From the IMG/VR virus record IMGVR_UViG_3300037067_007160, positions 66,356-130,355 of that record: a DNA stretch of 64,000 bases. One strand, 5' to 3'. How positions within the stretch are numbered: position 1 is the first letter of the stretch; every line of letters starts with the position of its first letter. The notes beneath the pieces are model-generated. The model ran no database searches. It saw only the letters and a program-made list of their open reading frames with translations, and was not told the DNA's origin. Source of the stretch: a virus (taxonomy: Duplodnaviria > Caudoviricetes). A program made the position numbers and the translations under genes. Of the stretch, positions 14,233 to 53,636 are shown piece after piece.

Positions 14233-16086
14233 ATGAATCCATCTAACAAACTCTTGTCGGATATCGTTGCTTTTAGAACGTACGCTCGATATATATCTAA
14301 TCTATCAAGACGAGAATCATTGGAAGAAACGATTAACCGAAATATGGTAATGCATCTTGAGAGATTTCCAGCTCTCTCAAAAGATATTATCAAAGCATAT
14401 GGGTTGGTTCATGACAAACTTGTTATGCCTTCAATGAGAGCCCTTCAGTTCTCTGGCGAGGCTGTAAGAAGGAATAACCTTCGTCTCTTTAACTGCTCCT
14501 ATCTCTCTATAGATGATCCACACGCTTTCGCTGAAGTCCTCTACCTCCTTCTATCAGGTACAGGAGTCGGCTACTCCGTTCAGAAGAAACACATTAACAA
14601 GCTTCCTATCGTTGGTAGTCCGAGAGAGGATAACATATTCAAGATTCATGACTCCATAGAAGGTTGGGCACAGGCTATCCACGTTCTTGCTGAAGCCTAC
14701 TTCTATAGTAGAATTCGCCCAATATTTGACTACTCACAGATAAGGGTACGAGGGGCCAGACTATCTACTACAGGAGCAAAGGCTCCTGGGCCAGAACCAC
14801 TTAAACATATGCTAGAAACAGTTGAGAAGAAGTTTCAGAATGCAAGAGGAAGAAGGTTACGTCCAATAGAGGTTCATGATATCGCATGTATTGTTAGTGA
14901 CTGCGTCCTCGCTGGCGGAGTACGTAGATCTGCCATGATTAGCCTATTTGATAGGGATGATAAGGAGATGCTTACCTGTAAGAGTGGTGAGTGGTACATA
15001 CAACATCCATATAGAGCTAGGGCTAATAATAGTGTTGTCCTTCCAAGGAAAGAGGTTACAAAAGAAGAGTTTGAGCATATCTTCAAGATAACAGAGGAGA
15101 GTGGGGCCGGCGAACCTGGCTTCACATGGACAAGCAATTCTGACATGGGCGTCAATCCATGTTCAGAGATATCTCTCTTTTCCAATCAACTCTGTAACCT
15201 CACTAGCATTAATCAAAGGGGAATTGAAGATAAGGCCGACTTCCTTAGAAGAGTAAATGCTGCTACCCTTATTGGTACTCTTCAAGCTGCTTATACTGAC
15301 TTTCCATTTGTTAGACCAGTATGGAAAGAAGTGACTGAGAGAGAAGCTCTCCTTGGAGTTTCATTCACGGGCATTGCTGATAGTGGTAGCAAAATTACTA
15401 ATGATTGGCTTGAAGAAGGAGCCATCTATGCGAAAGAAGTTAATGAACGGATAGCGAAGAAGATTGGTATAAATCTTGCAGCACGAATAACCTGTGTTAA
15501 ACCAGAAGGAACACTATCAACTATTGTTGGTTCATCTTCTGGAATTCATGCACGACATGCGCCATATTACATACGAAGAATTCGTATGAGTAAGAACGAT
15601 GATCTAGCTCATTATCTATCTAATACAATACCCGATCTTGTAGAAGATGATATTGCAGCAGCCAATACTGTAGTCGTGTCAATACCGCAAGAAGCACCAG
15701 ATGGTGCTATTGTAAGGAATCAGGAAACTGCTCTAGACCTCCTTGATCGTGTAATGCGCTACAATAATAACTGGGTAAAACCAGGACATAGAAGTGGAGA
15801 TAATCTTCACAATGTGAGTTGTACTGTGTCTGTGAAACCTGATGAGTGGAACAAGGTTGGTGAGTTCATGTGGAAACACAGGGCCAATTACACAGGTATC
15901 TCCCTTCTACCATATGATGGAGGAGAATATAAACAAATGCCTTTCGAAGAATGTACAAAAGATAGGTATGATGAACTGATGTCGCATATAAAGACCATTA
16001 ACTTAAGGGAAATACATGAGAATGATGATATGACGGAATTTACTAAGACTGTAGCATGTTCTGGTGGAAAATGTGAACTTATATAA
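14233..16086 (+). CDS. nrdJ: Class II (adenosylcobalamin-dependent) ribonucleotide reductase
   Basis: FNCS, GGVRRSA, NPCSEI thiyl motif, VKPEGT, C-terminal CSGGKC. Confidence 0.92.
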   Translation: MNPSNKLLSDIVAFRTYARYISNLSRRESLEETINRNMVMHLERFPALSKDIIKAYGLVHDKLVMPSMRALQFSGEAVRRNNLRLFNCSYLSIDDPHAFAEVLYLLLSGTGVGYSVQKKHINKLPIVGSPREDNIFKIHDSIEGWAQAIHVLAEAYFYSRIRPIFDYSQIRVRGARLSTTGAKAPGPEPLKHMLETVEKKFQNARGRRLRPIEVHDIACIVSDCVLAGGVRRSAMISLFDRDDKEMLTCKSGEWYIQHPYRARANNSVVLPRKEVTKEEFEHIFKITEESGAGEPGFTWTSNSDMGVNPCSEISLFSNQLCNLTSINQRGIEDKADFLRRVNAATLIGTLQAAYTDFPFVRPVWKEVTEREALLGVSFTGIADSGSKITNDWLEEGAIYAKEVNERIAKKIGINLAARITCVKPEGTLSTIVGSSSGIHARHAPYYIRRIRMSKNDDLAHYLSNTIPDLVEDDIAAANTVVVSIPQEAPDGAIVRNQETALDLLDRVMRYNNNWVKPGHRSGDNLHNVSCTVSVKPDEWNKVGEFMWKHRANYTGISLLPYDGGEYKQMPFEECTKDRYDELMSHIKTINLREIHENDDMTEFTKTVACSGGKCELI

Positions 16087-16567
16087 GAGAAGGAAAACGG
16101 GAGGAAGGACAAAATATCTTGGATATTGTGTTGATTGTAAGATAGAAAAGACACAAAGATGGTATAGACTTAAAGAGAACAAATCAATGGCAAGATGCCA
16201 ACATTGTTATGGAAAACTTAGACTTTGCAATAAACAAGTAAGAGAAATAAGAAATAAGCAAAGAAAAGAATGGGGAGAGAAATATGCGTACAGAGTATTT
16301 CTCAATCTAGTAAAATATAAGAAGTACACAACAGATATAACAAATGAGGAATATCTAACCTATATAAAACAACCATGTCATTATTGTGGAGGTAGCCTTC
16401 CAAATAGCGGCATTCGTCTTGATAGGGTAGATAATACGATAGGATATCTAAACTCAAATGTCGTTCCTTGTTGTAAAACTTGTAATATTGCAAAGAACAA
16501 CAAGTCAGTAGAAGAGTTTAAGGTATGGGTTATCAATGTCTACAATAAATTTCAAATAGTTAAATGA
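16064..16567 (+). CDS. Free-standing HNH-type homing endonuclease overlapping nrdJ 3' end
   Basis: CHYCG..LDRVDN..GY...NVVPCC..CN..K motif; more AT-rich than neighbours. Confidence 0.8.
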   Translation: MENVNLYKRRKTGGRTKYLGYCVDCKIEKTQRWYRLKENKSMARCQHCYGKLRLCNKQVREIRNKQRKEWGEKYAYRVFLNLVKYKKYTTDITNEEYLTYIKQPCHYCGGSLPNSGIRLDRVDNTIGYLNSNVVPCCKTCNIAKNNKSVEEFKVWVINVYNKFQIVK

Positions 16568-16579
16568 TATAATTCCAAC

Positions 16580-17269
16580 ATGGAACCAAACTACTCACTT
16601 CAAAGGCCAGATTATGCCCTTCAGACGGGGTGGACACCAATACCACATGCTGTAGTACGGGTCTCCAACAATACCATATCTATTCTCTGTAATAGATCTA
16701 CATACATATCAGTTGGTGATAAGATACTTCTAACACAGACGACTGATAAGTACTTCGAAGTTACCAACATATCAGTTGTTGGAAATACAACAACAATAAC
16801 TCTTAGTAGTCCTGAGGGTAGTGTTGTGAGCACTGACACAATCTACTATTCCTACTTCTCCAAGAATGATAGACCCTATGGTTATACTTCGGTGGGAAGG
16901 TTCAAGGCAGGAAGTTTCTTGACACCACATGGTGCTGATCCTGATGTCCAAAGTGTGACAGGTATTGGATTTAAGCCAAAGGCTATTGTATTTCTTGGCG
17001 TTTGTGGCCAGACTCCATCTGCTGAAAATGGTATAGGAGTTGGTATAACAGATGGAACTTCCTCCTTCTCCATTGTAGGATATACAGTAGATGGTGGAGC
17101 CTCTGGTGGAGAAGGACCAACTGCGAATACGGTTTTCCAACAGATAGATACTGTAGGCGCCATAACTATGAGCGCCAATCTAACTTCTATGGATGTTGAT
17201 GGATTCACCCTTCTATATAGTTCAAAAGCAGTGAATCCATATGTCATTGCCTATCTTGCTATGGGATAA
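16580..17269 (+). CDS. Tail fibre-like small protein
   Basis: 229 aa; TGIGFKPKAI motif, Gly/Thr-rich. Confidence 0.55.
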   Translation: MEPNYSLQRPDYALQTGWTPIPHAVVRVSNNTISILCNRSTYISVGDKILLTQTTDKYFEVTNISVVGNTTTITLSSPEGSVVSTDTIYYSYFSKNDRPYGYTSVGRFKAGSFLTPHGADPDVQSVTGIGFKPKAIVFLGVCGQTPSAENGIGVGITDGTSSFSIVGYTVDGGASGGEGPTANTVFQQIDTVGAITMSANLTSMDVDGFTLLYSSKAVNPYVIAYLAMG

Positions 17270-17272
17270 TAG

Positions 17273-17281
17273 TGATATAAT
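17273..17281 (+). promoter_or_regulatory. Extended -10 promoter upstream of the ncRNA/ribozyme locus
   Basis: TGATATAAT. Confidence 0.6.
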
Positions 17282-17340
17282 AATAGTAATATACATGTGG
17301 CGCCTCTGTCTATGACACGCGCAAACTCCACATGTTTTAT

Positions 17341-17407
17341 GGGCCTTGGTGAGGACGCATAGAGCGTACCTGACACCTTAAGATAGGTTTTACTCCTATC
17401 TGGTCCA
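17341..17407 (+). ncRNA. tRNA-like small RNA (5-bp acceptor with G3:U70 equivalent, 7-bp T-like arm, no anticodon loop)
   Basis: GGGCC/GGTCC-A; AGATAGG-TTTTACT-CCTATCT; central hairpin capped by ATAGA. Confidence 0.6.
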
Positions 17408-17464
17408 AACTAGCAAAGATAGCCACCTCCACGTGGTGCTAGTTGGATAACGCTAAGAGCTATC
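17408..17464 (+). ncRNA. Minimal HDV-like (theta-type) self-cleaving ribozyme
   Basis: P1 AACTAGC/GCTAGTT, P2 GATAGC/GCTATC, P3 ACC/GGT, L3 TCCACGT, P1.1 GG, J4/2 GCTAA. Confidence 0.8.
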
Positions 17465-17492
17465 ACACAGGACGAAGGTCCAGGAGGATACA

Positions 17493-17939
17493 ATGGGAAA
17501 TAATTCAAATTCCAAGAAAGATAGACTATTGGGAATACCACACGGAACTGCTAATGGACAGTTACGAAAAATGTTGGTCTTTGACATGGCTAAACGTCTT
17601 GGATTACTAGACTGCTATAGATGTAAAGAACCTATTCTTAAGATAAGAGATTTTTCTATAGAACATAAAATACCATGGCAGTCATCTGAAGAACCAAAAG
17701 TAGCATTCTTTGACTTAGAAAACATTGCTTTCTCACACTTAAGTTGCAATAGTGGTGCGGGCAGTGGAAGTGGAAGAACCATTATATATCCTGAAGGGCA
17801 GAAGTGGTGTGGTATATGTAAATCGTTCAAATCACTCACAGAGTTTCCTGCCTGTGCAAAACGAGATAGAAGTAGAAACTGTAAAGAATGTCATAGCAAC
17901 TTAATGGCAAAATGGAGAGAAAGAACGGGAAGACACTAA
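17493..17939 (+). CDS. HNH-like endonuclease, paralog of 22079 ORF
   Basis: CYRC..SIEHKIPW...NIAFSHLSCN plus C-terminal Zn finger; AGGAGG RBS. Confidence 0.8.
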   Translation: MGNNSNSKKDRLLGIPHGTANGQLRKMLVFDMAKRLGLLDCYRCKEPILKIRDFSIEHKIPWQSSEEPKVAFFDLENIAFSHLSCNSGAGSGSGRTIIYPEGQKWCGICKSFKSLTEFPACAKRDRSRNCKECHSNLMAKWRERTGRH

Positions 17940-18029
17940 CTCCCATTCTGGTCCACCAATTTCGCTGACTGTGCGGGGCAGTCCATCTACATAAGATCCC
18001 CGTTGTCCCTTGCGAAAGGGGAGGTCATA

Positions 18030-18836
18030 ATGTACAAGAACAATTATGTTCTAACCATTAGAAGGAATAACCAAACCCTACCAGAAACAAATGGTGAGTG
18101 TCTACTCCCATTCCAATCAGAATACGAAGTGAGGCTCAGGAACAAGAATAGGAAACGATCCCTGGTCGACCTCTACATTGATGGCCGACTTGTCACTAAG
18201 GGCGGTCTAATTGTTGATGCCAATAGTTATGTCGACCTTGAGAGGTTCATCGATAGTGACCTTACTAGAGGTGATCGGTTTAAGTTTGTTCCGATCAGTG
18301 ATGACAGGATCGACAAGGGTGAATCACAGAATGGCCTAGTAGAGGCTAGATTCTATGATGAGAGAGAACGAAAGTTTGAGATTCTTAACACTAGTTGGTC
18401 CCATACTTGCCACTATCAAAACTGTTGGCAATGTGGTACATGGCATTGTTCATGTCAATACTGTCCTATTCGAAACTATACAATCAACTCTGGTGGAACA
18501 AGTGGCAACGCCATCTATAGTTCAAATGTGGCAATATATAATAGCACCGACATTAGTCAATGTTCAACGGCACATCCCACCAGTAGCGTCCTACGTGGTG
18601 AAGCATCGGCTGGAGGAACTGTTCGTGGTGGCACCTCTAGCCAGAGGTTTACAGCATCCTACCTAGATGTTGATAAGGAAAAGCCCACAGTTATTAGGCT
18701 TAAGCTCCTTGGTGTTCCTCCACAAGGACATGAATGCAAGGGAAAGATCATCTCCTACTGCACTCGATGTGGCCAAGAGACTGGTCAGGAAGATAGGTAC
18801 TGTTCCAAGTGCGGAAAAGATCTAACCCGCAGATAA
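18030..18836 (+). CDS. Conserved phage protein with Cys-rich insert and C-terminal double zinc ribbon
   Basis: LPFQSEYEVRLRN..VDLYIDG motif; CTRCG..YCSKCG; GGAGG RBS. Confidence 0.7.
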   Translation: MYKNNYVLTIRRNNQTLPETNGECLLPFQSEYEVRLRNKNRKRSLVDLYIDGRLVTKGGLIVDANSYVDLERFIDSDLTRGDRFKFVPISDDRIDKGESQNGLVEARFYDERERKFEILNTSWSHTCHYQNCWQCGTWHCSCQYCPIRNYTINSGGTSGNAIYSSNVAIYNSTDISQCSTAHPTSSVLRGEASAGGTVRGGTSSQRFTASYLDVDKEKPTVIRLKLLGVPPQGHECKGKIISYCTRCGQETGQEDRYCSKCGKDLTRR

Positions 18837-19192
18837 ACTTCATAGAGACTGGTCTATCGGTACTCATAGAGGGAGCTGGATCAATTTCCGGCTTCCTTTA
18901 TGGGCCGATAAATGGTATGATGCTGGAAGATGGGCGGGTAGCGCTACAGATGTTCATCAAGACCCCTACCCACTTTCCACTTGGAAATACAGATGCTAAC
19001 TACAAGATAAGGTTTGTGGCGGCCAATCTGGCTACAGAAGCTGTGCAAATTGGTAGATATAGGGATGAGGGTTCGATGTACTTCGTTAGGGTAGCTCTGA
19101 CGACAGATGAGATTCAACAGGTAAGTTCAGCCCTTAGCTACAATAAGCTAAGGGAAGGTATGGGCCAAGTGATAAAGATGTTGACAAATTGA
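18809..19192 (+). CDS. Hypothetical protein
   Basis: 127 aa ORF filling the gap before the promoter. Confidence 0.55.
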   Translation: MRKRSNPQINFIETGLSVLIEGAGSISGFLYGPINGMMLEDGRVALQMFIKTPTHFPLGNTDANYKIRFVAANLATEAVQIGRYRDEGSMYFVRVALTTDEIQQVSSALSYNKLREGMGQVIKMLTN

Positions 19193-19209
19193 AAAATCTG
19201 TGATATAAT
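19181..19209 (+). promoter_or_regulatory. Consensus sigma70 promoter at the head of the tmRNA/tRNA array
   Basis: TTGACA-17 nt-TATAAT with extended TG. Confidence 0.9.
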
Positions 19210-19215
19210 ATATAC

Positions 19216-19341
19216 ATGCCAAAGAAGCTAATGTCATGCGTCAGACAACTGAAGAGAAAAGGAAACTCTAATCCTTGGGCAATTTGTATTGCGGCCACAG
19301 GGCAACACCCTGAGCCGAGGCGGCACAAGAAAAGACGGTAG
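19216..19341 (+). CDS. Small basic protein (41 aa, MPKKLMSCVRQLKRKGNSNPWAIC...)
   Basis: ATG 6 nt after -10 box; two Cys, Lys/Arg-rich; not in ORF track. Confidence 0.55.
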   Translation: MPKKLMSCVRQLKRKGNSNPWAICIAATGQHPEPRRHKKRR

Positions 19342-19373
19342 ACAACCTCCAGTTGCAACAGACGACTCAGCAC

Positions 19374-19422
19374 CAAGGGTGGGGTTCTACTAAAAAGGAA
19401 TCTCACCCTTGCTCTTTGACAA
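19374..19422 (+). promoter_or_regulatory. rrn-type antitermination site: hairpin plus boxA-like TGCTCTTTGACA
   Basis: One mismatch to boxA TGCTCTTTAACA, preceded by a long hairpin. Confidence 0.65.
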
Positions 19423-19425
19423 TAT

Positions 19426-19862
19426 GGGCCTGAATTAGGTTTGACGGGGCTCACCGAGTGAAAGCGGCAAGCAGGGCCGGCACAACGTCCCTTGAAAAAC
19501 TTGTGCAAAGCCTAAATGGCAAAGTAAAAGAAGAGTCCAGCCTGCTCTCTCAGGCTATGGCGATTATTGACGCAGCGTTCGAAAGAGCGCCGGAGTTCGT
19601 TCTCGCCTAACCCGCAAGGGTTGTCTCGATCCTAACTAGATTCGTTCACCTTGTAAGGGATCGGGTAACACTAGGTGAATGGCGGTCTCTATCAGCGCCT
19701 TATCTGGTAGATGGTGGAGGAGCCTAGAAGATTTACCAAATGATTTGGTAAATCTTAGTTCGCTCCCTGTAGTAAACCAAGCCATTGGTTAATTGGCTAA
19801 GCTTGTAGATGCGATCATAAAGGAGTTTCGGACGCGGGCTGCGATGCCCGCCAGGTCCACCA
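19426..19862 (+). ncRNA. ssrA: tmRNA; tag frame 19518-19610 (A)GKVKEESSLLSQAMAIIDAAFERAPEFVLA
   Basis: GGGCCTG..TTGAC 5' end, GGAC-GCGGG..CCCGC-CAGGTCCACCA 3' end with G3:U70; TAAAT before resume codon. Confidence 0.92.
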
Positions 19863-19869
19863 ATATAAG

Positions 19870-19943
19870 GCCGGTTTCGTATAAAGGAATTATACCTCAC
19901 TCGTAATGAGGAGATCCTGGATCGTTACCAGGAACCGGCTCCA
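19870..19943 (+). tRNA. tRNA-Thr(CGT)
   Basis: GCCGGTT/AACCGGC, CCTCA-CTCGTAA-TGAGG, CCA. Confidence 0.88.
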
Positions 19944-19956
19944 GTGTTGTAGGGAA

Positions 19957-20013
19957 TCCGTGGATCCTCTCGCATAGAGCGAGTGCTGGTAAGACCGGCG
20001 GTGAAACCACGGG
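19957..20013 (+). ncRNA. Unassigned three-way-junction RNA element
   Basis: CCGTGG/CCACGG enclosing CTCGC-ATAGA-GCGAG and GCTGGT-AAG-ACCGGC. Confidence 0.45.
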
Positions 20014-20015
20014 CT

Positions 20016-20093
20016 GCTCATGTGGCGCAATTGGCAGACGCATCCGGCTTAGAACCGGAAATCCTGCAGGTTCGACTCCTGTCATGAGCACCA
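20016..20093 (+). tRNA. tRNA-Leu(TAG), short variable region
   Basis: GCTCATG/CATGAGC, TCCGG-CTTAGAA-CCGGA. Confidence 0.9.
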
Positions 20094-20109
20094 GATTTGA
20101 GGAGGTTAT

Positions 20110-20205
20110 ATGGATATTGAAGAGTTCGTTAGGTCACAAGTTGACCTACCAGAAGACTTTAAGAAATTACTTGAGGAGAACTTCTGGAATCTGATTCTTG
20201 AATGA
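20110..20205 (+). CDS. Small hypothetical protein (31 aa)
   Basis: GAGGAGG RBS; MDIEEFVRSQVDLPEDFKKLLEENFWNLILE. Confidence 0.55.
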   Translation: MDIEEFVRSQVDLPEDFKKLLEENFWNLILE

Positions 20206-20209
20206 TTTT

Positions 20210-20286
20210 GCCTCATTGGTGTAGCGGCTTGCATGCTTCCCTGTCAAGGAAGAGGCTGGCGGGTTCGACTCCCGCATGGGGCGCCA
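20210..20286 (+). tRNA. tRNA-Asp(GTC)
   Basis: CTTCC-CTGTCAA-GGAAG, GCCA end. Confidence 0.9.
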
Positions 20287-20296
20287 GATAGTAATT

Positions 20297-20382
20297 GGGC
20301 TTGTGGTGGAATGGCAGACACGTGCGCTTGAGGTGCGCATGGCCGCAAGGTCGTGGAGGTTCGACTCCTCTCAAGCCCACCA
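20297..20382 (+). tRNA. tRNA-Leu(GAG)
   Basis: TGCGC-TTGAGGT-GCGCA, long variable arm. Confidence 0.92.
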
Positions 20383-20383
20383 T

Positions 20384-20471
20384 GGAGAGTTGGGTGAGAG
20401 GCTTATACCAGAGGTTTGCTAAACCTCCGAGCCGCAAGGCTCCACAGGTTCGAATCCTGTACTCTCCACCA
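20384..20471 (+). tRNA. tRNA-Ser(GCT)
   Basis: GAGGT-TTGCTAA-ACCTC, long variable arm. Confidence 0.92.
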
Positions 20472-20477
20472 GATTTT

Positions 20478-20555
20478 GCGCCTGTCGTACAAATGGAAAG
20501 TACACTCGGCCTTTAACCGAGACTAGTGTGGGATCATACCCCACCAGGCGCACCA
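20478..20555 (+). tRNA. tRNA-Lys(TTT), C33 and atypical T-loop
   Basis: CTCGG-CCTTTAA-CCGAG; T-loop ATCATAC. Confidence 0.85.
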
Positions 20556-20571
20556 GATTTATGGGAGAAAT

Positions 20572-20886
20572 ATGGATAAAAGAACATATAAAGATAGAAG
20601 AGAATATCTCATAAAAGCAGTAAAGAGAAGAAGACGAGAATTAAGAAAACAAGCAGTGAATTATGCTGGAGGAAAGTGCATTTTATGCAATTATAATAAA
20701 TGCTTACATGCACTAGAATTTCATCATAAAGATCCAACACAGAAAGATTTTGGAATATCAAATGGTAATTGTAATAGTTGGAATAGAATGAGGAATGAAA
20801 TTGATAAATGTATTCTAGTCTGTGCAAATTGTCATAGAGAAATACATGAGAAATTGGCGTCTACCCATCAAGGTGACGGGTCCTGA
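20572..20886 (+). CDS. HNH endonuclease; stop codon inside tRNA-Asn
   Basis: CILC..LEFHHKDP..KCILVCANCHRE. Confidence 0.85.
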   Translation: MDKRTYKDRREYLIKAVKRRRRELRKQAVNYAGGKCILCNYNKCLHALEFHHKDPTQKDFGISNGNCNSWNRMRNEIDKCILVCANCHREIHEKLASTHQGDGS

Positions 20887-20932
20887 CTGTTAATCAGGCA
20901 CAAGGGTGGTTCGATCCCACCGACGCCAGCCA
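20855..20932 (+). tRNA. tRNA-Asn(GTT)
   Basis: TGGCGTC/GACGCCA, CCTGA-CTGTTAA-TCAGG. Confidence 0.85.
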
Positions 20933-20950
20933 AATTTAGGAGATATATAT

Positions 20951-21385
20951 ATGCATCTAACATACACAAAAGCACAATTAGCATCACTTAAAGTTCAAAT
21001 GTGGGCTAATCAATTAGGATATGTCGTTTCAATACCAACTGTTGAATCTAGATATGATATTCTTGTTGATGTTGATGGAAAAATATTTCGTTGTCAAGTT
21101 AAGTATGCTGGAAGAAAGCTTACAAGTGGGGCAACAGAGTTGGATCTTCGTAAAGAGACAAGAAATAATGGGAAAAAAAGATTATATACGAAAGATGAGA
21201 TAGATGTTATTCTTGTATATGTTCCTGAAGAAGACAAGGTTCTTTGGATTGATCATTCTAAATTTCATAATAGAAAAAGTCTAACAATTAGACATATTGA
21301 GAATACAAAATGTAAACAAGATTCAATATTTGTTAACGATTATATATGGGTCCAGAGCTCGGTTGGTAGAGCAGACGCCTCTTAA
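20951..21385 (+). CDS. PD-(D/E)XK homing-type endonuclease; stop codon inside tRNA-Lys(CTT)
   Basis: VSIP..RYDILVD..RCQVKY..Y...EID motif; AGGAG RBS before ATG 20951. Confidence 0.82.
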   Translation: MHLTYTKAQLASLKVQMWANQLGYVVSIPTVESRYDILVDVDGKIFRCQVKYAGRKLTSGATELDLRKETRNNGKKRLYTKDEIDVILVYVPEEDKVLWIDHSKFHNRKSLTIRHIENTKCKQDSIFVNDYIWVQSSVGRADAS

Positions 21386-21423
21386 GCGTAAGGTCGTGGG
21401 TTCGATTCCCACTGGTCCCACCA
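21348..21423 (+). tRNA. tRNA-Lys(CTT)
   Basis: ACGC-CTCTTAA-GCGT, TTCGATT loop, ACCA. Confidence 0.88.
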
Positions 21424-21430
21424 ATTTGTT

Positions 21431-21458
21431 GTGGGTCCAACTCCCACTCGACGCACCA
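21431..21458 (+). pseudogene. Orphan tRNA 3' remnant (T-arm, acceptor strand, ACCA)
   Basis: GTGGG-TCCAACT-CCCAC-TCGACGC-ACCA with no matching 5' half. Confidence 0.7.
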
Positions 21459-21463
21459 GATTT

Positions 21464-21539
21464 GGCCTTATAGTGAAATTGAATATCACATCTCCGTCCT
21501 AAGGAGAAGTTTTCGGTTTGAGTCCGAATAAGGCCGCCA
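21464..21539 (+). tRNA. tRNA-Arg(CCT)
   Basis: TCTCC-GTCCTAA-GGAGA. Confidence 0.88.
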
Positions 21540-21554
21540 GATATAGGAGTCTTC

Positions 21555-21923
21555 ATGAACAAGATACCACTAGTCTCAGTAACCAAAGATGACTTGGAAA
21601 TACAGACGTTTAGATGTGGAGGAAAAGGTGGCCAGCATCAGAATAAGACAGAAAGTGGAGTAAGAATTATTCATCCTCCATCTGGAGTAACAGTAGAGTC
21701 AAGAGAGGAACGGTCACAGGCACAGAACAAGGCTATTGCATTTAAGAGACTTACTACTAATAAGAAGTTTCTATTATGGTTAAAGATGGAATCGGCTAGG
21801 AAGATGGGCATCCTTGAAGATATTAATAGGGCAGTTGATAGGATGATGGATCCAAAGAATATAAAGACCGAAGTTAAAGAAGATGAGAAATGGGTAGAGA
21901 AGGAATTAGCGGGTGTGGTGTAA
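21555..21923 (+). CDS. Stand-alone RF-1-domain peptidyl-tRNA hydrolase (ArfB-like ribosome rescue factor)
   Basis: FRCGGKGGQHQNKTESGVRIIHPPSG..ERSQAQNK; lacks codon-recognition domains. Confidence 0.88.
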   Translation: MNKIPLVSVTKDDLEIQTFRCGGKGGQHQNKTESGVRIIHPPSGVTVESREERSQAQNKAIAFKRLTTNKKFLLWLKMESARKMGILEDINRAVDRMMDPKNIKTEVKEDEKWVEKELAGVV

Positions 21924-21982
21924 TGGTAGCATGAGACCCTTCCAAGGTCCAGGTACGAGTTCGAGTCTCGTCATCCGCTCCA
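21909..21982 (+). tRNA. tRNA-Gly(TCC)
   Basis: GCGGGTG/CATCCGC, CTTCCAA loop, TCCA. Confidence 0.9.
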
Positions 21983-21987
21983 GTTTT

Positions 21988-22059
21988 GACGGTGTAGCCT
22001 AATGGCTAGGCAACGGATTGCAAACCCGTTTTATGCTGGTTCGATTCCAGCTGCCGTCT
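21988..22059 (+). tRNA. tRNA-Cys(GCA) with substituted 3' acceptor strand, no encoded CCA
   Basis: TTGCAAA loop; GACGGTG/TGCCGTC; perfect 3' end CACCGTCTCCA displaced to 22485-22495. Confidence 0.85.
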
Positions 22060-22078
22060 CATTTTAGGGGTATTATAA

Positions 22079-22483
22079 TTGTTAAATAATAATAAGAAGA
22101 ATATACAACTCGAAATGAAATATGGAACAGCTTGTAATAAACTTAGAAAACTAATACTATTCACATTAGTTAAAGAAACAAAGAGAAATATATGTTATCA
22201 ATGTAAAAAAGAAATAACAAGTATCGATGATTTCACAATAGAACATAAGATTCCTTGGTTAGATAGTTTGGAACCAAAGAAATTGTTCTTTAGTATTGAT
22301 AATATTGGATTTTCTCACTATAAATGTAATATACGAGTTGCAAGAAAGATAAACAAGAAATATGCAACAAGAAATCAACGAGTAAGAGAATCTAGTAAAA
22401 GAATAAGAGATAGAATAAGGAAAACTAATCCAGAATTACTTAGACAGATTAGAAGAGAACAATATAGAAGGACAGGAAATTAA
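22079..22483 (+). CDS. HNH-like endonuclease, paralog of 17493 ORF
   Basis: GTACNKLRK..CYQC..TIEHKIPW..NIGFSHYKCN. Confidence 0.8.
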   Translation: MLNNNKKNIQLEMKYGTACNKLRKLILFTLVKETKRNICYQCKKEITSIDDFTIEHKIPWLDSLEPKKLFFSIDNIGFSHYKCNIRVARKINKKYATRNQRVRESSKRIRDRIRKTNPELLRQIRREQYRRTGN

Positions 22484-22496
22484 TCACCGTCTCCAT

Positions 22497-22590
22497 GGAA
22501 GAGCTGACCGAAGGCTGGCGCCGGTAGCTGTCTCGAAAACAGTCAGTCCAATGATTGGACCTGTGGGATCGTTCCCCACCTCTTCCGCCA
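22497..22590 (+). tRNA. tRNA-Ser(CGA)
   Basis: GCTGT-CTCGAAA-ACAGT, long variable arm, GCCA. Confidence 0.85.
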
Positions 22591-22600
22591 GATTTTAGAT

Positions 22601-22676
22601 GGACCTTTGGTGTAGGTGGTGTGCACGTCTGTCTGAAGCACAGAAGGAATCCGTTCGACTCGGATAGGGTCCACCA
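22601..22676 (+). tRNA. tRNA-Phe(GAA)
   Basis: TCTGT-CTGAAGC-ACAGA. Confidence 0.88.
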
Positions 22677-22682
22677 GAATAT

Positions 22683-22781
22683 GCGCCCGTTGACTAACGG
22701 TGAAGTCTCCCGCCTTATAAGCGGGCAAGTCAGGTCCTAGATTGGGGCCTCATCCAGGTTCGAATCCTGGCGGGCGTACCA
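22683..22781 (+). tRNA. tRNA-Ile(TAT) with very long variable arm
   Basis: CCCGC-CTTATAA-GCGGG; 28-nt variable region with 8-bp stem. Confidence 0.8.
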
Positions 22782-22789
22782 AGTTTAGT

Positions 22790-22802
22790 TGTTCTTTGAC
22801 AA
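22790..22802 (+). promoter_or_regulatory. Second boxA-like element
   Basis: TGTTCTTTGACAA followed by the same TATGGGCCTG as at the tmRNA. Confidence 0.55.
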
Positions 22803-22805
22803 TAT

Positions 22806-22880
22806 GGGCCTGTGGTGTAATTGCGAGCATTGATCCCCTGCAAGGATTAGGCGAGGGTTGGAATCCCTCCAGGTCCACCA
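22806..22880 (+). tRNA. tRNA-Ala(TGC), C33
   Basis: GGGCCTG/CAGGTCC G3:U70; GATCC-CCTGCAA-GGATT. Confidence 0.88.
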
Positions 22881-22884
22881 ATTT

Positions 22885-22959
22885 ACCCCTGTGGTGAAAC
22901 GAATATCATTTTGCGCTTCGAACGCAAAGTTGCGGGTTTGAATCCTGTCAGGGGTGCCA
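22885..22959 (+). tRNA. tRNA-Arg(TCG)
   Basis: TTGCG-CTTCGAA-CGCAA. Confidence 0.88.
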
Positions 22960-22960
22960 T

Positions 22961-23035
22961 GGGCCTATAGTGTAATGGATAGCACAAGACTCTACGAAAG
23001 TCTAAGTGATGGTTCAAGTCCATCTAGGCCCGCCA
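22961..23035 (+). tRNA. tRNA-Arg(ACG)
   Basis: AGACT-CTACGAA-AGTCT. Confidence 0.9.
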
Positions 23036-23043
23036 AATTTTAT

Positions 23044-23118
23044 CTAGCTGTAGCGTAATTGGTAGCGTCCACCGTTTGGGGCGGTGTGGTGAGAGTTCAA
23101 GTCTCTCCAGCTAGACCA
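23044..23118 (+). tRNA. tRNA-Pro(TGG)
   Basis: CACCG-TTTGGGG-CGGTG. Confidence 0.9.
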
Positions 23119-23135
23119 GTTTATGGGAGGAAGAA

Positions 23136-23327
23136 ATGAATAGGGGTAAAGTTGCTACAATTATAATTAAAGAAAAGAATGGGAGAAAATTACAGTTTGA
23201 TGTATCAGGTTACTCATATCGTTTCTCTAGGAAGAAAGTTCCAGTATTTGGAGTGACAGAGTTAGATCATATTATTATTGGTCCAGGAAAACTAACTATT
23301 TCAGCAAGATTACCTGCACCAAAATAA
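23136..23327 (+). CDS. Hypothetical protein (63 aa)
   Basis: GGGAGG RBS. Confidence 0.6.
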   Translation: MNRGKVATIIIKEKNGRKLQFDVSGYSYRFSRKKVPVFGVTELDHIIIGPGKLTISARLPAPK

Positions 23328-23390
23328 GATTTATAGATGTAGCACTTTTGTAAGAAAAATGTAGACGTTTTCCTTACAAAAATGTAGAAT

Positions 23391-23466
23391 GCTAATGTAG
23401 CACAATTGGCTGTGCACTTTCTTGGTAAGAAAGAGGATGTGGGTTCGAATCCCATCATTAGCTCCA
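23391..23466 (+). tRNA. tRNA-Thr(GGT)
   Basis: CTTTC-TTGGTAA-GAAAG. Confidence 0.9.
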
Positions 23467-23471
23467 GATTT

Positions 23472-23546
23472 GCCGATGTAGCTCAATGGTAGAGCAGTCG
23501 CTTTGTAAGCGAAAGGTTGGAGGTTCAAGTCCTCTCTTCGGCTCCA
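23472..23546 (+). tRNA. tRNA-Thr(TGT)
   Basis: TCGC-TTTGTAA-GCGA. Confidence 0.9.
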
Positions 23547-23551
23547 GATTT

Positions 23552-23743
23552 ATGAAGATCATAGAGACTATAAAAAGGTTCTGTATTAGACATCCAAAGT
23601 TGGCCCGTGTAGGTTGGACCTGGAGTCTACCAACTTTCAGTAAGAAGAATGAACCAGTAGAACATGAGGAAAGAAAGGTAGTAGCCCATTATTGTTGGTG
23701 TGGTCATTGTCATTGGGATCCACCTACTTGTTGTCAGAAGTAG
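23552..23743 (+). CDS. Small Cys/His-rich protein
   Basis: HYCWCGHCH..CC; ATG 23552 (track start lies inside a tRNA). Confidence 0.5.
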   Translation: MKIIETIKRFCIRHPKLARVGWTWSLPTFSKKNEPVEHEERKVVAHYCWCGHCHWDPPTCCQK

Positions 23744-23747
23744 ATTT

Positions 23748-23834
23748 GCCGCGTTGGCAGAGTGGTCTATCGCAGCTGACTGTAAATCAGCCGGACTATG
23801 TCCTTCGGTGGTTCGAATCCACCACGTGGCACCA
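23748..23834 (+). tRNA. tRNA-Tyr(GTA)
   Basis: GCTGA-CTGTAAA-TCAGC, variable arm. Confidence 0.92.
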
Positions 23835-23876
23835 TATTTGGTTCGCGAAGCCAAGCTAGAGCTTAAGATATAATTT

Positions 23877-23956
23877 GGCCATAACCACAAATCCTGGTGG
23901 TATTAGGCAAGTAAGCGTTGGTCCAGGAATCCAACGGACTATAAGTCCTGTAGCCA
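23877..23956 (+). ncRNA. Unassigned tRNA-sized four-way-junction RNA with possible kissing loops
   Basis: Closing stem GGCCATA/TGTAGCC; hairpins ACCAC/GTGGT, GTTGG/CCAAC, GGACT/AGTCC; TCCTG/CAGGA loop complementarity. Confidence 0.5.
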
Positions 23957-23960
23957 AATT

Positions 23961-24034
23961 GCGGGTGTAGTATAAAGGTAGTACGACACGTTGCCAACGT
24001 GTAGGCGCCGGATCGTTACCGGTCACCCGCTCCA
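23961..24034 (+). tRNA. tRNA-Gly(GCC)
   Basis: ACACG-TTGCCAA-CGTGT; T-loop ATCGTTA. Confidence 0.88.
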
Positions 24035-24042
24035 AGTTTATC

Positions 24043-24116
24043 GGGGTCGTGATGCAACTGGCAGACATCGAAAGCTCAAACCTTTCGTCCTGTGGGTTCG
24101 AGTCCCACTGACCCTA
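24043..24116 (+). tRNA. tRNA-Leu(CAA), short variable region, no encoded CCA
   Basis: GAAAG-CTCAAAC-CTTTC. Confidence 0.85.
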
Positions 24117-24202
24117 CGGTCCTGTAGCTCAAGTGACAGAGACAAATGTTACTATTGACATATAGTTCTGTTTAAGATATAATCTTGGTAGGAGGTCAGA
24201 TC

Positions 24203-24655
24203 ATGAATCCACCAAGATATTTACATCTGAAAGAACAAGTGATACATCTTCGTAAGCAAGGATTTGGTTATAGGTCAATTTCAAACAAGCTTAATAATAC
24301 CATTCCATGGAGTTCTGTAAGAAGACTAGTAATTGGAATGCGTAGTAATCCAAGACTAGCTTATCTAATGGCGACTGAATACTCTCAAAGGAGACCAAAG
24401 GAATGGAATGATATACGAACAATGAGAGTTCGTCGTTTGTATCTTATTCAAGAACGTGGTCATAAATGTGAAAGCTGTAATTTAAGTTTCTGGAAAAATC
24501 ATACTATTCCACTAGAACTTGAGCATAAGGATGGATGTAGAACTAATAATAGTAAATCTAATTTAGAGTTATTATGTCCTAATTGCCATGTTTTTACTCC
24601 TTATTATAAAGGAAAGAATACTTCATCTTTTCGAAGTAGGGCGAGTGTGGTGTAA
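24203..24655 (+). CDS. HTH + HNH endonuclease; stop codon inside tRNA-Leu(TAA)
   Basis: KCESC..LELEHKDG..NNSKSNLELLCPNCH; GGAGG RBS. Confidence 0.88.
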   Translation: MNPPRYLHLKEQVIHLRKQGFGYRSISNKLNNTIPWSSVRRLVIGMRSNPRLAYLMATEYSQRRPKEWNDIRTMRVRRLYLIQERGHKCESCNLSFWKNHTIPLELEHKDGCRTNNSKSNLELLCPNCHVFTPYYKGKNTSSFRSRASVV

Positions 24656-24717
24656 CTGGCAAACACTCTGATCTTAAAAATCAGATCTTGTGAGTTCGAA
24701 TCTCATCACTCGCACCA
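24641..24717 (+). tRNA. tRNA-Leu(TAA), short variable region
   Basis: GCGAGTG/CACTCGC, CTGAT-CTTAAAA-ATCAG. Confidence 0.88.
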
Positions 24718-24783
24718 ATTTAATATTAGCGAACTAGTGTCGGTTCGAGTCCGACCAGGACTACCATATTTATGGGAGGATGT

Positions 24784-24918
24784 ATGAAGAAAGACACATT
24801 AAGATGCCCATATTGTAAGGGTGATATGAGGCATTCGAAACCGGATCAGAACGGAAACGTAATTTGGAATTGTGACTATTGTAAAGCAACATTAGCTGAT
24901 AAAATATCCACCAAGTAA
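24784..24918 (+). CDS. Small zinc-ribbon protein (44 aa)
   Basis: CPYC..WNCDYC; GGGAGG RBS. Confidence 0.6.
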   Translation: MKKDTLRCPYCKGDMRHSKPDQNGNVIWNCDYCKATLADKISTK

Positions 24919-24921
24919 AAT

Positions 24922-25176
24922 ATGGCAGCGATACTAGGCTGGATCTCTACCATCATCTTCTCAGTCTGTATCCTACCACAGATCTGGAAGACTTGGAAGA
25001 GTAAGAGGGCTGATGATATCAGTATTGTCTCATGGCTCATGTTCTTTACTGGTAACGTAACCGCCCTAATATATGCTATAATGATAGTCCAATGGCCGCT
25101 GATCATTAAGTACGTTTTCGCACTTGCTGCATCTTTTCTATTGACAGTATTATGTTTATTGTATAAAAGGAGGTAG
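24922..25176 (+). CDS. PQ-loop/SemiSWEET-family membrane protein
   Basis: LPQIWKTWKSKRADDIS motif, three TM helices. Confidence 0.82.
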   Translation: MAAILGWISTIIFSVCILPQIWKTWKSKRADDISIVSWLMFFTGNVTALIYAIMIVQWPLIIKYVFALAASFLLTVLCLLYKRR

Positions 25177-25177
25177 C

Positions 25178-25402
25178 ATGCTCATGAAAGCGAAAGTAAA
25201 AGAATGGTTCCTTGGAAAGGCACTGAAGAAGGTTGCATCACAGGTTGCCATATTCGCGGTCGCCATAGTAGCGGCCGTCAACGCCAAGAACCTTGGAGTA
25301 AATATTAACATTGATCCTGATGTGCTGGCTGGATCCGTCTTCGCTGGTCTTCAGCTATTGCGCAACTTCCTCAAGACAAAGTATAATGTAGACTGGCTTT
25401 AA
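25178..25402 (+). CDS. Small membrane protein (holin-like)
   Basis: Two hydrophobic segments; AGGAGG RBS. Confidence 0.55.
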   Translation: MLMKAKVKEWFLGKALKKVASQVAIFAVAIVAAVNAKNLGVNINIDPDVLAGSVFAGLQLLRNFLKTKYNVDWL

Positions 25403-25412
25403 CATTCTCAAT

Positions 25413-25486
25413 GGCTCCGCAGCTCGAAGGTCGAGCATCCGGCCTACATCCGGAAGGGGCTGGTTCAATTCCAGCCGGGGTCACCA
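25413..25486 (+). tRNA. tRNA-Val(TAC), C33
   Basis: TCCGG-CCTACAT-CCGGA. Confidence 0.88.
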
Positions 25487-25557
25487 ACTTTGCGCTCAAA
25501 GCTCATATGGCTGAGCATATGTCGATAACTGTGATATAATTTAACTAGGAGGATATC

Positions 25558-25965
25558 ATGGATAAGACATGTGTTCTTTGTTGGAATAAAGTAAAGAAGT
25601 ATAGATCTGATATATGTGGATCATGTATGGTTTTAATACGGAGACTTCGTCTAAAACTTGCGTGTATAAAGTTACTTCATGGAAAATGTTTCAAATGCGG
25701 AATGATCGCAACATTGAAAAATCTAGGAGCATTTCAGTTTCATCATAAAGATCCAAGTGAGAAGAAGTTCCAGTTATCATTTGGTACATACTCTTGGGAT
25801 AAAATAAAAGAAGAAGCAAGAAAATGTGAACTTTGGTGTGCTAATTGTCATTCTATTAATCATGCAACAACATACACAGAAGAAAAGATTAATAGAGCTA
25901 TACGTTTTTGTGGAACTGAAGATATACATAATCTTGTAGCAGAATGGAAAATTATTGGCTCGTAG
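25558..25965 (+). CDS. HNH endonuclease; stop codon inside tRNA-Ile(GAT)
   Basis: KCFKC..FQFHHKDP..KCELWCANCH. Confidence 0.85.
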   Translation: MDKTCVLCWNKVKKYRSDICGSCMVLIRRLRLKLACIKLLHGKCFKCGMIATLKNLGAFQFHHKDPSEKKFQLSFGTYSWDKIKEEARKCELWCANCHSINHATTYTEEKINRAIRFCGTEDIHNLVAEWKIIGS

Positions 25966-26029
25966 CTTAATGGTCAAGCCATCGCTCGATAAGCGATAGA
26001 TGTGGGTTCGATTCCCAACGGGCCAACCA
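25956..26029 (+). tRNA. tRNA-Ile(GAT), cassette-borne, C33
   Basis: TGGCTCG/CGGGCCA, ATCGC-TCGATAA-GCGAT. Confidence 0.85.
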
Positions 26030-26093
26030 ATATGATAACCGGGAGATAGCAGGTTCGAATCCTGCTGGGCGCACCAAATACGGAGGACGCATA

Positions 26094-26129
26094 ATGGCGA
26101 AGAAGAAACCTCGTGGTGGCTGTAAGTAG
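26094..26129 (+). CDS. Possible micropeptide MAKKKPRGGCK
   Basis: GGAGG RBS; followed by hairpin ACTCCCC..GGGGAGT. Confidence 0.35.
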   Translation: MAKKKPRGGCK

Positions 26130-26163
26130 ATAGAAGACTCCCCTCAACTTGGGGGAGTTACTT

Positions 26164-26236
26164 TGCGGAGTCATTCAATGGTAGGATGTCGCTCTCTGAA
26201 AGCGATAACGTTGGTTCAACTCCAGCCTCCGCAGCC
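26164..26236 (+). tRNA. tRNA-Gln(CTG)
   Basis: TCGCT-CTCTGAA-AGCGA. Confidence 0.88.
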
Positions 26237-26327
26237 GGAAGATTGGCCGAGTGGTTTAAGGCACTCGTCTTGAAAACGAGAGGACCTGATGAAGGTTCCA
26301 CTGGTTCGAATCCAGTATCTTCCGCCA
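26237..26327 (+). tRNA. tRNA-Ser(TGA)
   Basis: CTCGT-CTTGAAA-ACGAG, long variable arm. Confidence 0.92.
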
Positions 26328-26332
26328 ATTTT

Positions 26333-52938: not shown

Positions 52939-53636
52939 ACGAACCAGTTCTATTTAGCCAACTATCAAAAGAAATAATAGAGCAGTTTGAAGATGGATGG
53001 AATGAAAACAACTATAAGAAACCGGGATGGGTTATAGACGAGATACCATTCTTTGATATTACTCCTAGAAATGCATATACACATAACGCATATGATTCTA
53101 ATAAAACATTTGGTATATTAGGTAAGATGTCAAAAAGTCTATCTGGTCCAAATACTCTCGGCTGTGACATTGGCTGTGTTGATATGACCTATGCTAGTAT
53201 AATGATTAGCTATGGAATAGAGAAAGTAATTATATTTGAACCTAAGCTATTGAATGATACAAAACAACCACAGATAGAACTTATGACTATGGATATAACA
53301 CGAGAAGAATATACTGGCCCAAAGTTTGATCTTATGTGTTGTATATCTACCATAGAACATATAGGACTAGGAAGATATGGTGATCCTATAGATCCAATTG
53401 GCGATATTAAGATGATGAAAGCTATATATAATATGCTAAAATCTGATGGAAGGGCAATTCTATCCTTTCCATATAATAAGAATCCAGAGTCTGTTGGTAT
53501 TATTAGATGGAATGGTTGTAGAATATATAATCAATTTAGAAAAGATCTGCTATTCAAAGATTTTAACGTTGTAGAAGAAACTAATCTAGATAATCCACAA
53601 CCAATCTGGGTTCTTAAAAAGAAGGAGGAAGTATGA
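52935..53636 (+). CDS. DUF268-like methyltransferase
   Basis: STIEHIGLGRYGDPIDP motif. Confidence 0.78.
   Translation: MNEPVLFSQLSKEIIEQFEDGWNENNYKKPGWVIDEIPFFDITPRNAYTHNAYDSNKTFGILGKMSKSLSGPNTLGCDIGCVDMTYASIMISYGIEKVIIFEPKLLNDTKQPQIELMTMDITREEYTGPKFDLMCCISTIEHIGLGRYGDPIDPIGDIKMMKAIYNMLKSDGRAILSFPYNKNPESVGIIRWNGCRIYNQFRKDLLFKDFNVVEETNLDNPQPIWVLKKKEEV

Follow-up and report, generated by a model that had tools for sequence, protein, structure and literature searches.

How a selfish nuclease gene can come to lie in the gene of a structured RNA without costing that RNA its 3' end is the question raised by a locus in the 64,000-nucleotide (nt) stretch of phage DNA analysed here. This stretch, referred to below as the window, is the second half of the 130-kb IMG/VR virus record IMGVR_UViG_3300037067_007160, which was judged to be about 52% complete at that length and therefore to come from a giant phage. 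At the locus, a transfer RNA (tRNA)-shaped RNA of 67 nt, referred to as X, is directly followed by a theta-type ribozyme, a minimal HDV-like ribozyme (HDV, hepatitis delta virus), and by the gene of an HNH homing endonuclease, behind which a diverged copy of the 3' end of X is found (Table 1). A sequence-only reading of this DNA had proposed that a mobile unit of ribozyme and HNH gene invaded the 3' end of the RNA, and a genome with an uninterrupted X gene now supports this. In our judgement, the window probably carries the occupied allele of an integrase-free homing-endonuclease cassette in the 3' part of an alanine-type, anticodon-less RNA gene, in which ribozyme cleavage would make the insertion harmless. 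The locus combines elements of known kinds, a theta ribozyme and a free-standing homing endonuclease; what sets it apart is how cleanly its mobility is documented and how uncommon its target RNA is.

The empty and occupied alleles

The protein encoded upstream of X is unchanged on other contigs, and in L090, a 71.7-kb NCBI contig, the next gene follows it after 213 nt as against 761 nt in the window. The X gene of L090 is uninterrupted (...GATAGGTTTGACTCCTATCTGGTCCA-CCA-ATTTCGCTG...) and its RNA ends in ...CTGGTCCA-CCA, with the same fold as in the window, a free ACCA end and an encoded CCA. Neither an HNH gene nor a ribozyme was found in L090 by alignment, and the theta covariance model R1 described below finds nothing in this contig. 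Over the approximately 5.5 kb from 14272 to 19741, the window and L090 differ only by one single-nucleotide polymorphism (SNP, at 17391) and a 548-nt insertion or deletion; beyond these limits they diverge by 1-20% per 200 nt. L090 is the kind of relative, lacking the insert between the two 3'-end copies, for which the sequence-only reading had recommended a search.

The 548-nt block holds the ribozyme, the HNH gene and the 17-nt downstream copy, and as the two genomes differ by this one block, the three are gained or lost together. Its presence or absence as a whole, in genomes that are otherwise identical, means that the cassette is mobile now or was so until recently; with flanks that match the empty allele exactly, it also looks recent. 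The presence or absence of a gene at one site between near-identical genomes is also the behaviour by which a homing endonuclease is recognized. The occupied allele was found again in L091 (99.9% identity), and the gene spacing on a Logan contig implies a second empty allele. The base composition of the insert shows no contrast. The two alleles form a natural before-and-after pair, in which a ribozyme and a homing-endonuclease gene appear as one 548-nt block at a place where the 3' end of an RNA would otherwise be destroyed.

The upstream repeat copy is identical to L090, the downstream copy carries two substitutions and one extra base, and from the CCA onward the sequence behind the downstream copy is again identical to the empty allele. 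Aligned with 17392-17407, the downstream copy matches at 15 of 16 aligned bases and has a 1-nt insertion, a score that was reached by none of 2000 mononucleotide shuffles of the 600 nt behind the ribozyme, and in a control over the whole window about one match as good as the downstream copy was found per 128 kb. Because it is far more diverged than the flanks, the downstream copy is taken as an old duplicate that the cassette carries along. The single SNP, which sits at the repeat's 5' edge, accords with co-conversion during homing. The displaced 3' end that had been described from the sequence holds in substance, with the genomic CCA and the old flank lying 548 nt away behind a diverged duplicate of tRNA positions 58-73; either copy may be the original.

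Table 1. Coordinates of the features at and around the ribozyme/HNH locus in the window.
Feature	Position	Strand	Basis and remarks
Upstream neighbour	16580-17269		229-amino-acid (aa) open reading frame (ORF)
Promoter-like site TTGCTA-17-AATAAT	17256..17284	+	Weak; consensus scan, 9/12 matches; upstream of X
Hairpin ACATGTGG...CCACATGT then TTTTA	17293..17335	+	Sequence; directly before X; same in the empty allele
X, 67-nt anticodon-less tRNA-shaped RNA	17341..17407	+	Fold; intact in L090
T-loop position 57 SNP	17391	+	SNP map; T in window, G in L090; directly 5' of the repeat
Upstream repeat copy ACTCCTATCTGGTCCA	17392..17407	+	Alignments; tRNA positions 58-73; working 3' end of X
548-nt insertion, absent from the empty allele	17408..17955	+	BLAST and MAFFT against L090; 17392-17939 equally valid, as the boundaries slide in the 16-nt repeat
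Theta-type minimal HDV-like ribozyme	17408..17464	+	Descriptor, Rfam RF02682, model R1, published layout; segments AACTAGC, AAA, GATAGC, C, ACC, TCCACGT, GGT, GCTAGTT, GG, ATAACG, CTAAGA, GCTATC
P1	17408-14 / 17438-44		AACTAGC / GCTAGTT
J1/2			AAA
P2	17418-23 / 17459-64		GATAGC / GCTATC; additional unpaired C at 17424
P3	17425-27 / 17435-37		ACC / GGT
L3	17428-34		TCCACGT
P1.1	17429-30 / 17445-46		CC / GG
L4	17447-52		ATAACG
J4/2	17453-58		CTAAGA
Candidate catalytic cytosine	17453	+	First base of J4/2 (CTAA) by the published theta layout; column invariant in 80 aligned ribozymes
AAGGTCC, then directly AGGAGG (Shine-Dalgarno sequence for HNH)	17475..17487	+	AAGGTCC complementary to 17341-47, the 7 nt at the start of X
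HNH homing-endonuclease gene, 148 aa	17493..17939	+	Pfam PF01844
Downstream copy ACTCCCATTCTGGTCCA and genomic CCA	17939..17958 (copy 17939-17955)	+	Alignments; diverged positions 58-73
Downstream neighbour	18030-18836		Zinc-ribbon ORF

The 3' end of X (TACTCCTATCTGGTCCA) was also matched over 12-16 nt within ORFs at 29415-29431, 53138-53150, 54379-54392 and, on the minus strand, at about 3935. Such matches number six sites in total against about one expected from shuffles; despite this excess, those inside ORFs are probably coding coincidences. In IMG/VR, ACTCC-N3/4-CTGGTCCACCA was found mostly in orphan alanine-type 3' ends (CGC/CAC variants), with neither CATT nor TAT among the matches listed. 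At least 120 viral contigs (L094-L213) hold ACTCC-NNN-CTGGTCCACCA, and among the 120 matches listed 115 are orphan fragments without a tRNA or transfer-messenger RNA (tmRNA) call. These fragments look like att-like copies of the 3' ends of alanine-type tRNAs or tmRNA.

The ribozyme, the RNA before it and the gene behind it

Positions 17408-17464 are a real, full-length member of the theta family by sequence and structure. Every ribozyme element named in the sequence-only reading was found where that reading had placed it, and the nested double pseudoknot (P1, P1.1, P2 and P3), with a short L4 replacing P4, is present. The descriptor and covariance searches by which it had proposed to check this agree. 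The descriptor built for this study, which demands all theta pairings (P1, P1.1, P2, P3 and a short L4 for P4), has exactly one match on both strands of the window, at 17408-17464, and gave 0.067 loose and no strict matches per window in 150 dinucleotide shuffles; as a positive control, it finds the classical theta ribozymes adjoining suppressor, Met and Leu tRNAs in IMG/VR. The covariance model R1, built from 80 theta-like ribozymes of IMG/VR with the window ribozyme left out, matches the same segment over its full length with 56.4 bits (E 5e-11), the next match in the window having an E value of 2.2. The core letters ACC-TCCACGT-GGT, GG and CTAA are all kept, in columns that are invariant in the 80 aligned family members. 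The R1 score and the segment-by-segment fit to the published theta layout confirm the theta-type identity. Rfam RF02682 matches 17408-17465 with 26.2 bits (E 0.014 for the 901 nt searched and 4.7e-4 for the 130-kb record), beginning at the predicted cut. This score falls below the gathering score of 44 because P4, which RF02682 has, is missing.

The cut is predicted between 17407 and 17408. Its proposed place right behind the discriminator is supported, since position 1 of the R1 model corresponds to 17408 and A17407 is the discriminator of the fold with the G3:U70 acceptor. Self-cleavage by the window ribozyme is likely. Four other theta members undergo Mg-dependent self-scission that is abolished by a C-to-U change at the catalytic position, and theta ribozymes cleave in vitro at the 3' ends of tRNAs, 95% of which are without an encoded CCA (Kienbeck et al., 2024; PMC10879173).

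X itself folds into a Y shape (-28.7 kcal/mol, z -3.7). Its acceptor consists of five base pairs (bp; GGGCC/GGUCC) with G3:U70 and the discriminator A (A73), and it is joined by a 7-bp T-type arm with a 7-nt loop and by a single bulged hairpin of 11 bp with a 5-nt loop. ARAGORN and Rfam called X neither as a tRNA nor as a tmRNA: it has no cloverleaf with a D arm and a 7-nt anticodon loop, and it is only 67 nt long, without a tmRNA match. The predicted cut site of the ribozyme thus adjoins the discriminator of an RNA which, for all its tRNA shape, goes uncalled by tRNA finders. G3:U70 and A73 form the alanine identity set, and the five terminal acceptor pairs and the ACCA end are common to X, the phage tmRNA and the phage tRNA-Ala. 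X would appear from these features to be an uncharacterised alanine-type tRNA mimic. A derivation of X from the phage tRNA-Ala was considered and rejected, as the alignment score was no better than against other tRNAs. The background of suppressor tRNAs in recoded phages, which the sequence-only reading had brought in, is inapplicable here: none of the 33 tRNA genes of the window (19870-28892) is a suppressor.

The ORF behind the ribozyme matches PF01844 with 24.8 bits (cut-off 21.4). In its catalytic motif, H58, H82, N86 and the cysteines are invariant across 26 homologues, and the last base of its stop codon TAA (17937-39) is also the A with which the downstream repeat begins, namely A58. 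Near the start of this gene lies AAGGUCC, whose complementarity to GGGCCUU (17341-47) at the 5' end of X, through which the sequence-only reading had suggested that cleavage could be coupled to translation, is real. The two pair when the precursor is folded to minimum energy, although such a pseudoknot-free fold cannot model pseudoknots.

Homing, the 3' end of X and rival explanations

The explanation that we favour is that of a homing cassette which carries the means of mending its own insertion site. The cassette would comprise three parts: immediately behind the discriminator of X, a theta ribozyme; then the HNH gene, with a short leader that holds a ribosome-binding site; and, before the old CCA, the diverged copy of positions 58-73. 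The HNH enzyme would cut the empty allele near the T-loop and 3' end, much like T4 SegB, and in repair from an occupied genome the entire block would be copied along with T-loop base 17391 beside it. What SegB recognises in tRNA genes is the DNA of the T-loop (PMC2330249), so that a target of this kind is plausible for these cassettes. Transcripts would start at the promoter-like region upstream and extend through X, the ribozyme and the HNH gene. Cleavage between A17407 and A17408 would then leave X ending at its discriminator with a 2',3'-cyclic phosphate, which host enzymes would open before adding CCA, and the same cut would release the HNH message with a 5'-OH. The ribozyme, which probably repairs the damage done by the cassette to the RNA gene, would render the insertion harmless to X as a self-splicing intron does for an intron-borne endonuclease. 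The downstream copy would be an old duplicate of the target end, whose divergence may protect against re-cleavage or against deletion between the repeats.

Several findings weigh against this explanation. The base at +1 is A17408, paired with U17444, in place of the G of the family. In the biochemistry of the HDV ribozyme a G:U wobble assists the binding of the catalytic metal, and with A-U instead of G at +1 the activity of the window ribozyme could be reduced. P2 is short and irregular, having 6 bp, an unpaired C and a 6-nt J4/2. X is absent from the more distant relative L092, in which the neighbour protein is 66% identical and a 111-nt spacer (4640-4750) holds no tRNA-like gene; a benefit of an intact X is for this reason assumed only. 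The 130 kb of the record, which cover about 52% of the genome, yielded neither a CCA-adding enzyme nor an RNA ligase. The searches for a native gene that ends in the downstream version of the repeat found none: the exact 17-mer of this copy has no match in IMG/VR, and its 27 matches in metagenomes are all chance matches in unrelated sequence. R1 finds a theta ribozyme at none of 66 loci of the HNH family. Lastly, the same tRNA and ribozyme occur in L259 (ribozyme 3952-4007) and L280 (9630-9685, reverse strand), with a 690-nt GIY-YIG gene, starting 5 nt behind the ribozyme, only in L280. Such ribozymes can accordingly outlive or precede a nuclease, and as ribozyme and nuclease are separable elsewhere, their joint arrival here could have taken two steps.

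Some of these points bear on what the ribozyme does. It might mainly serve the HNH message, X being a functionless tRNA-derived remnant in the 5' leader and the cut removing a stable structure and leaving a 5'-OH, to the benefit of translation or stability. The lariat-capping ribozyme before the endonuclease ORF of twin-ribozyme introns does a similar job. X is also without an anticodon loop, uncalled by ARAGORN and Rfam, and missing in L092, and as the AAGGUCC by the ribosome-binding site can pair with the 5' end of uncut X, cleavage could matter for translation. This explanation is nevertheless rather unlikely, given that the predicted cut falls exactly at the discriminator, like those of tRNA-linked theta ribozymes, and that neither the alanine-type acceptor of X, which is perfect, nor its 7-bp T arm has been lost, a CCA being encoded as well in the empty allele; the two roles are, besides, compatible with each other. 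The ribozyme might alternatively be an inactive relic or hitch-hiker, killed by the A at +1 and the weak P2, in which case host RNases (of the RNase Z/BN type) followed by CCA addition would make the 3' end of X. The 114 IMG/VR loci with theta-like ribozymes collected for comparison (88 unique ribozymes, 86 unique loci) put these peculiarities in proportion. The base at +1 is G in 83 of the 88 unique ribozymes (62 with U and 21 with C as partner), T in two and A in only three, so A1-U in place of G1:U or G1-C is rare, and the 6-bp P2 with its unpaired C and the Rfam score under the gathering threshold likewise speak for a relic. In the homologous ribozymes L248 and L292, however, the closing pair of P1 is A1-U and G1-C, respectively, a compensatory change by which A at +1 is seen to occur naturally, and the sub-layout with an unpaired C and a 6-nt J4/2 is common to 28 of the 88. 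With the family-invariant core letters and the catalytic C intact, an R1 score of 56.4 bits and a cassette recent enough to have flanks identical to the empty allele, we regard a dead ribozyme as improbable.

Other points bear on the direction and nature of the change. The window could show the ancestral state, L090 having lost the cassette by deletion between two CTGGTCCA repeats. Recombination in this common 8-nt sequence would give exactly the L090 junction, ...CCTATCTGGTCCA-CCA, and the loss of a homing-endonuclease gene is a normal part of its life cycle. Against this, the one base that differs in 5.5 kb is found directly at the repeat's 5' edge, as is predicted by co-conversion during homing but not by deletion, and gains and losses of such genes in tRNA regions are evident from L092 and the wider HNH family. 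A low probability was consequently given to the deletion, and the block behaves as one mobile unit either way. That the approximately 550 nt are an intron of the X gene, joining 17341-17391 to 17939-17958 by splicing, is scarcely conceivable. It would suit the frequent occurrence of HNH genes in introns, and the repeat copies could resemble exon ends, but no group I or group II match to Rfam was found in 17200-18100 at E values up to 10, HDV-like ribozymes cleave rather than splice, and the fold of X is already perfect with the upstream copy, while use of the downstream one would introduce mispairing into the T stem.

Known systems, other theta loci and the gene neighbourhood

In intron-borne endonucleases and twin-ribozyme introns, a catalytic RNA silences the insertion phenotype or shapes the 5' end of the endonuclease message. 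The window differs from these in having neither splicing nor exon ligation, the proposed repair consisting instead of cleavage and a duplicated 3' end. Integrase islands in tRNA and tmRNA genes likewise insert in the 3' part, are bounded on both sides by a direct repeat of the 3' end and leave the gene intact; the element in the window, in contrast, has no integrase and is only 548 nt long. Unlike such islands it needs a ribozyme, because the retained copy lacks CCA and the natural trailer.

The published theta ribozymes (PMC10879173) resemble that of the window in segment order, in the core letters ACC-T-CC-ACGT-GGT...GG...CTAA, in a length of 57 nt without P4 and in the predicted cut right behind the discriminator A of an RNA without encoded CCA. 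The window differs from them in the non-tRNA nature of the upstream RNA, the A at +1 and the lack of a suppressor tRNA, and its ribozyme lies within a 548-nt present/absent block together with an HNH gene. T4 SegB is similar in that a nuclease gene lies amid tRNA-type genes, with the T-loop region as likely recognition or insertion site, and is inherited as a block together with flanking markers (PMC2330249). SegB is, however, a GIY-YIG enzyme without a ribozyme, whereas the window has an HNH gene behind an RNA of a self-cleaving type and a duplicate of positions 58-73 of the target. R2 retrotransposons (PMC3774820) are also elements in a structural RNA gene that are co-transcribed and cut free by an HDV-like ribozyme at the 5' junction. 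They are eukaryotic retroelements with a reverse transcriptase in 28S rDNA, as opposed to a phage homing cassette at the DNA level, and in the window the released upstream RNA is the likely beneficiary.

Homing endonucleases were also found at other theta loci. Of 28 unique ORFs that start within 150 nt behind a theta ribozyme, 7 encode homing endonucleases (six of the GIY-YIG and one of the HNH_3 type), as compared with 9 of 135 behind ribozyme-less tRNAs on the same contigs (Fisher p 0.008); a Seg-like fragment is present within 900 nt at 16 of 81 theta sites and at 37 of 428 control tRNAs (p 0.005), all these counts coming from related phages and hence not being independent. In 8 of the 86 unique theta loci, tRNA positions 58-73 recur about 650 nt downstream, mostly perfectly, after the stop codon TAA of an intact or decayed GIY-YIG gene, the last A of the stop being A58 as in the window. 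At seven tRNA loci (L219, L269, L301, L307, L238, L241 and L245), the last 12-17 nt of the tRNA recur about 650-690 nt behind the ribozyme (139 nt in L245). TAA with A58 as its last base precedes the repeat in six of the seven, L307 having TGA, and Pfam detects fragments of GIY-YIG-type (Seg-like) genes in four. In L230 (minus strand, 3773-4347), one of the eight, a tmRNA (3833-4347, called by ARAGORN) is followed directly by a theta ribozyme (3773-3832), then by a decayed Seg-like gene and, 648 nt after the ribozyme, by a repeat of the tmRNA 3' end. Theta ribozymes therefore also sit behind tmRNA, a non-tRNA acceptor of alanine.

The locus may, we tentatively suggest, represent a class of elements not yet described, which would do without an integrase, enter the T-loop or 3' end of the genes of tRNAs, tmRNA and their mimics, duplicate positions 58-73, use the universally conserved A58 to complete the stop codon of the nuclease and re-create the 3' end by means of a theta ribozyme. 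If this is true, many orphan theta ribozymes of phages would be leftovers of such cassettes, and the theta ribozyme would be combinable with unrelated nucleases, either GIY-YIG or HNH. A literature search found no paper linking HDV-like ribozymes with homing endonucleases, and the main text of the theta paper mentions neither endonucleases nor tmRNA (Kienbeck et al., 2024; PMC10879173).

More generally, the locus suggests a second route, besides self-splicing introns, by which selfish nucleases may enter RNA genes, namely to cleave and to keep a duplicated end. Theta ribozymes have so far been described as tRNA-trimming devices of unknown origin, and to our knowledge no function has been assigned to those that are not associated with tRNAs; the route proposed here could explain the spread of self-cleaving ribozymes among phage tRNA genes. 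Bench experiments could test the idea directly, since the locus is compact, has sharp borders and is known in both allelic states. The locus also points to an alanine-type tRNA mimic in a giant phage that already has 33 tRNAs and a tmRNA.

The HNH protein belongs to the free-standing endonucleases of phage tRNA arrays. It has 88 homologues, the closest (P0002 and P0003) with 50-55% identity. Among 80 related loci in IMG/VR, 68 have tRNAs in their flanks and 45 a same-strand tRNA ending within 200 nt upstream, and a location in tRNA arrays was also observed for the relatives in the crAss-like phage cr126_1 and the L004 group. A paralogue in the window itself (22079-22483; phmmer E 1.4e-24) lies between tRNA-Cys and tRNA-Ser(cga) and has no ribozyme. 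The descriptor found no theta ribozyme in cr126_1, the L004 group, the window paralogue or the 80 IMG/VR relatives. The pairing of HNH with theta is consequently unusual, and the ribozyme as an obligate partner of this HNH family was rejected. A short repeat of the upstream tRNA 3' end as a general trait of the family was likewise rejected, only 3 of 32 loci being significant. The matches in L083 and L051 lie in a second tRNA-like sequence downstream of the HNH gene and not in a short orphan fragment.

The ribozyme/HNH locus lies 1.5 kb upstream of the tRNA array, and a full tmRNA (19426-19862) is separate from X. No close relatives of either flanking protein were found in IMG/VR, a profile of the upstream neighbour protein gave no matches in JGI metagenomes, and a homologue search with the downstream neighbour protein returned no intermediate relatives. 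Promoter-like sites of the kind seen upstream of X were no commoner in the window than in shuffles (consensus scan). In the spacer of L092, nothing was seen but a promoter close to consensus and a hairpin that resembles the leader downstream of X. L090 (from 6739 onward) loses collinearity with the window (from 19867 onward) right after the tmRNA, with only one tRNA-Leu segment matching further on, so that variation among these genomes is seen to centre on the tRNA array. The tmRNA (19410-19430) and tRNA-Ala (22790-22810) are preceded by almost identical leaders, (t/c)tctttgacaatatGGGCC, in place of which X has ...catgttttatGGGCC.

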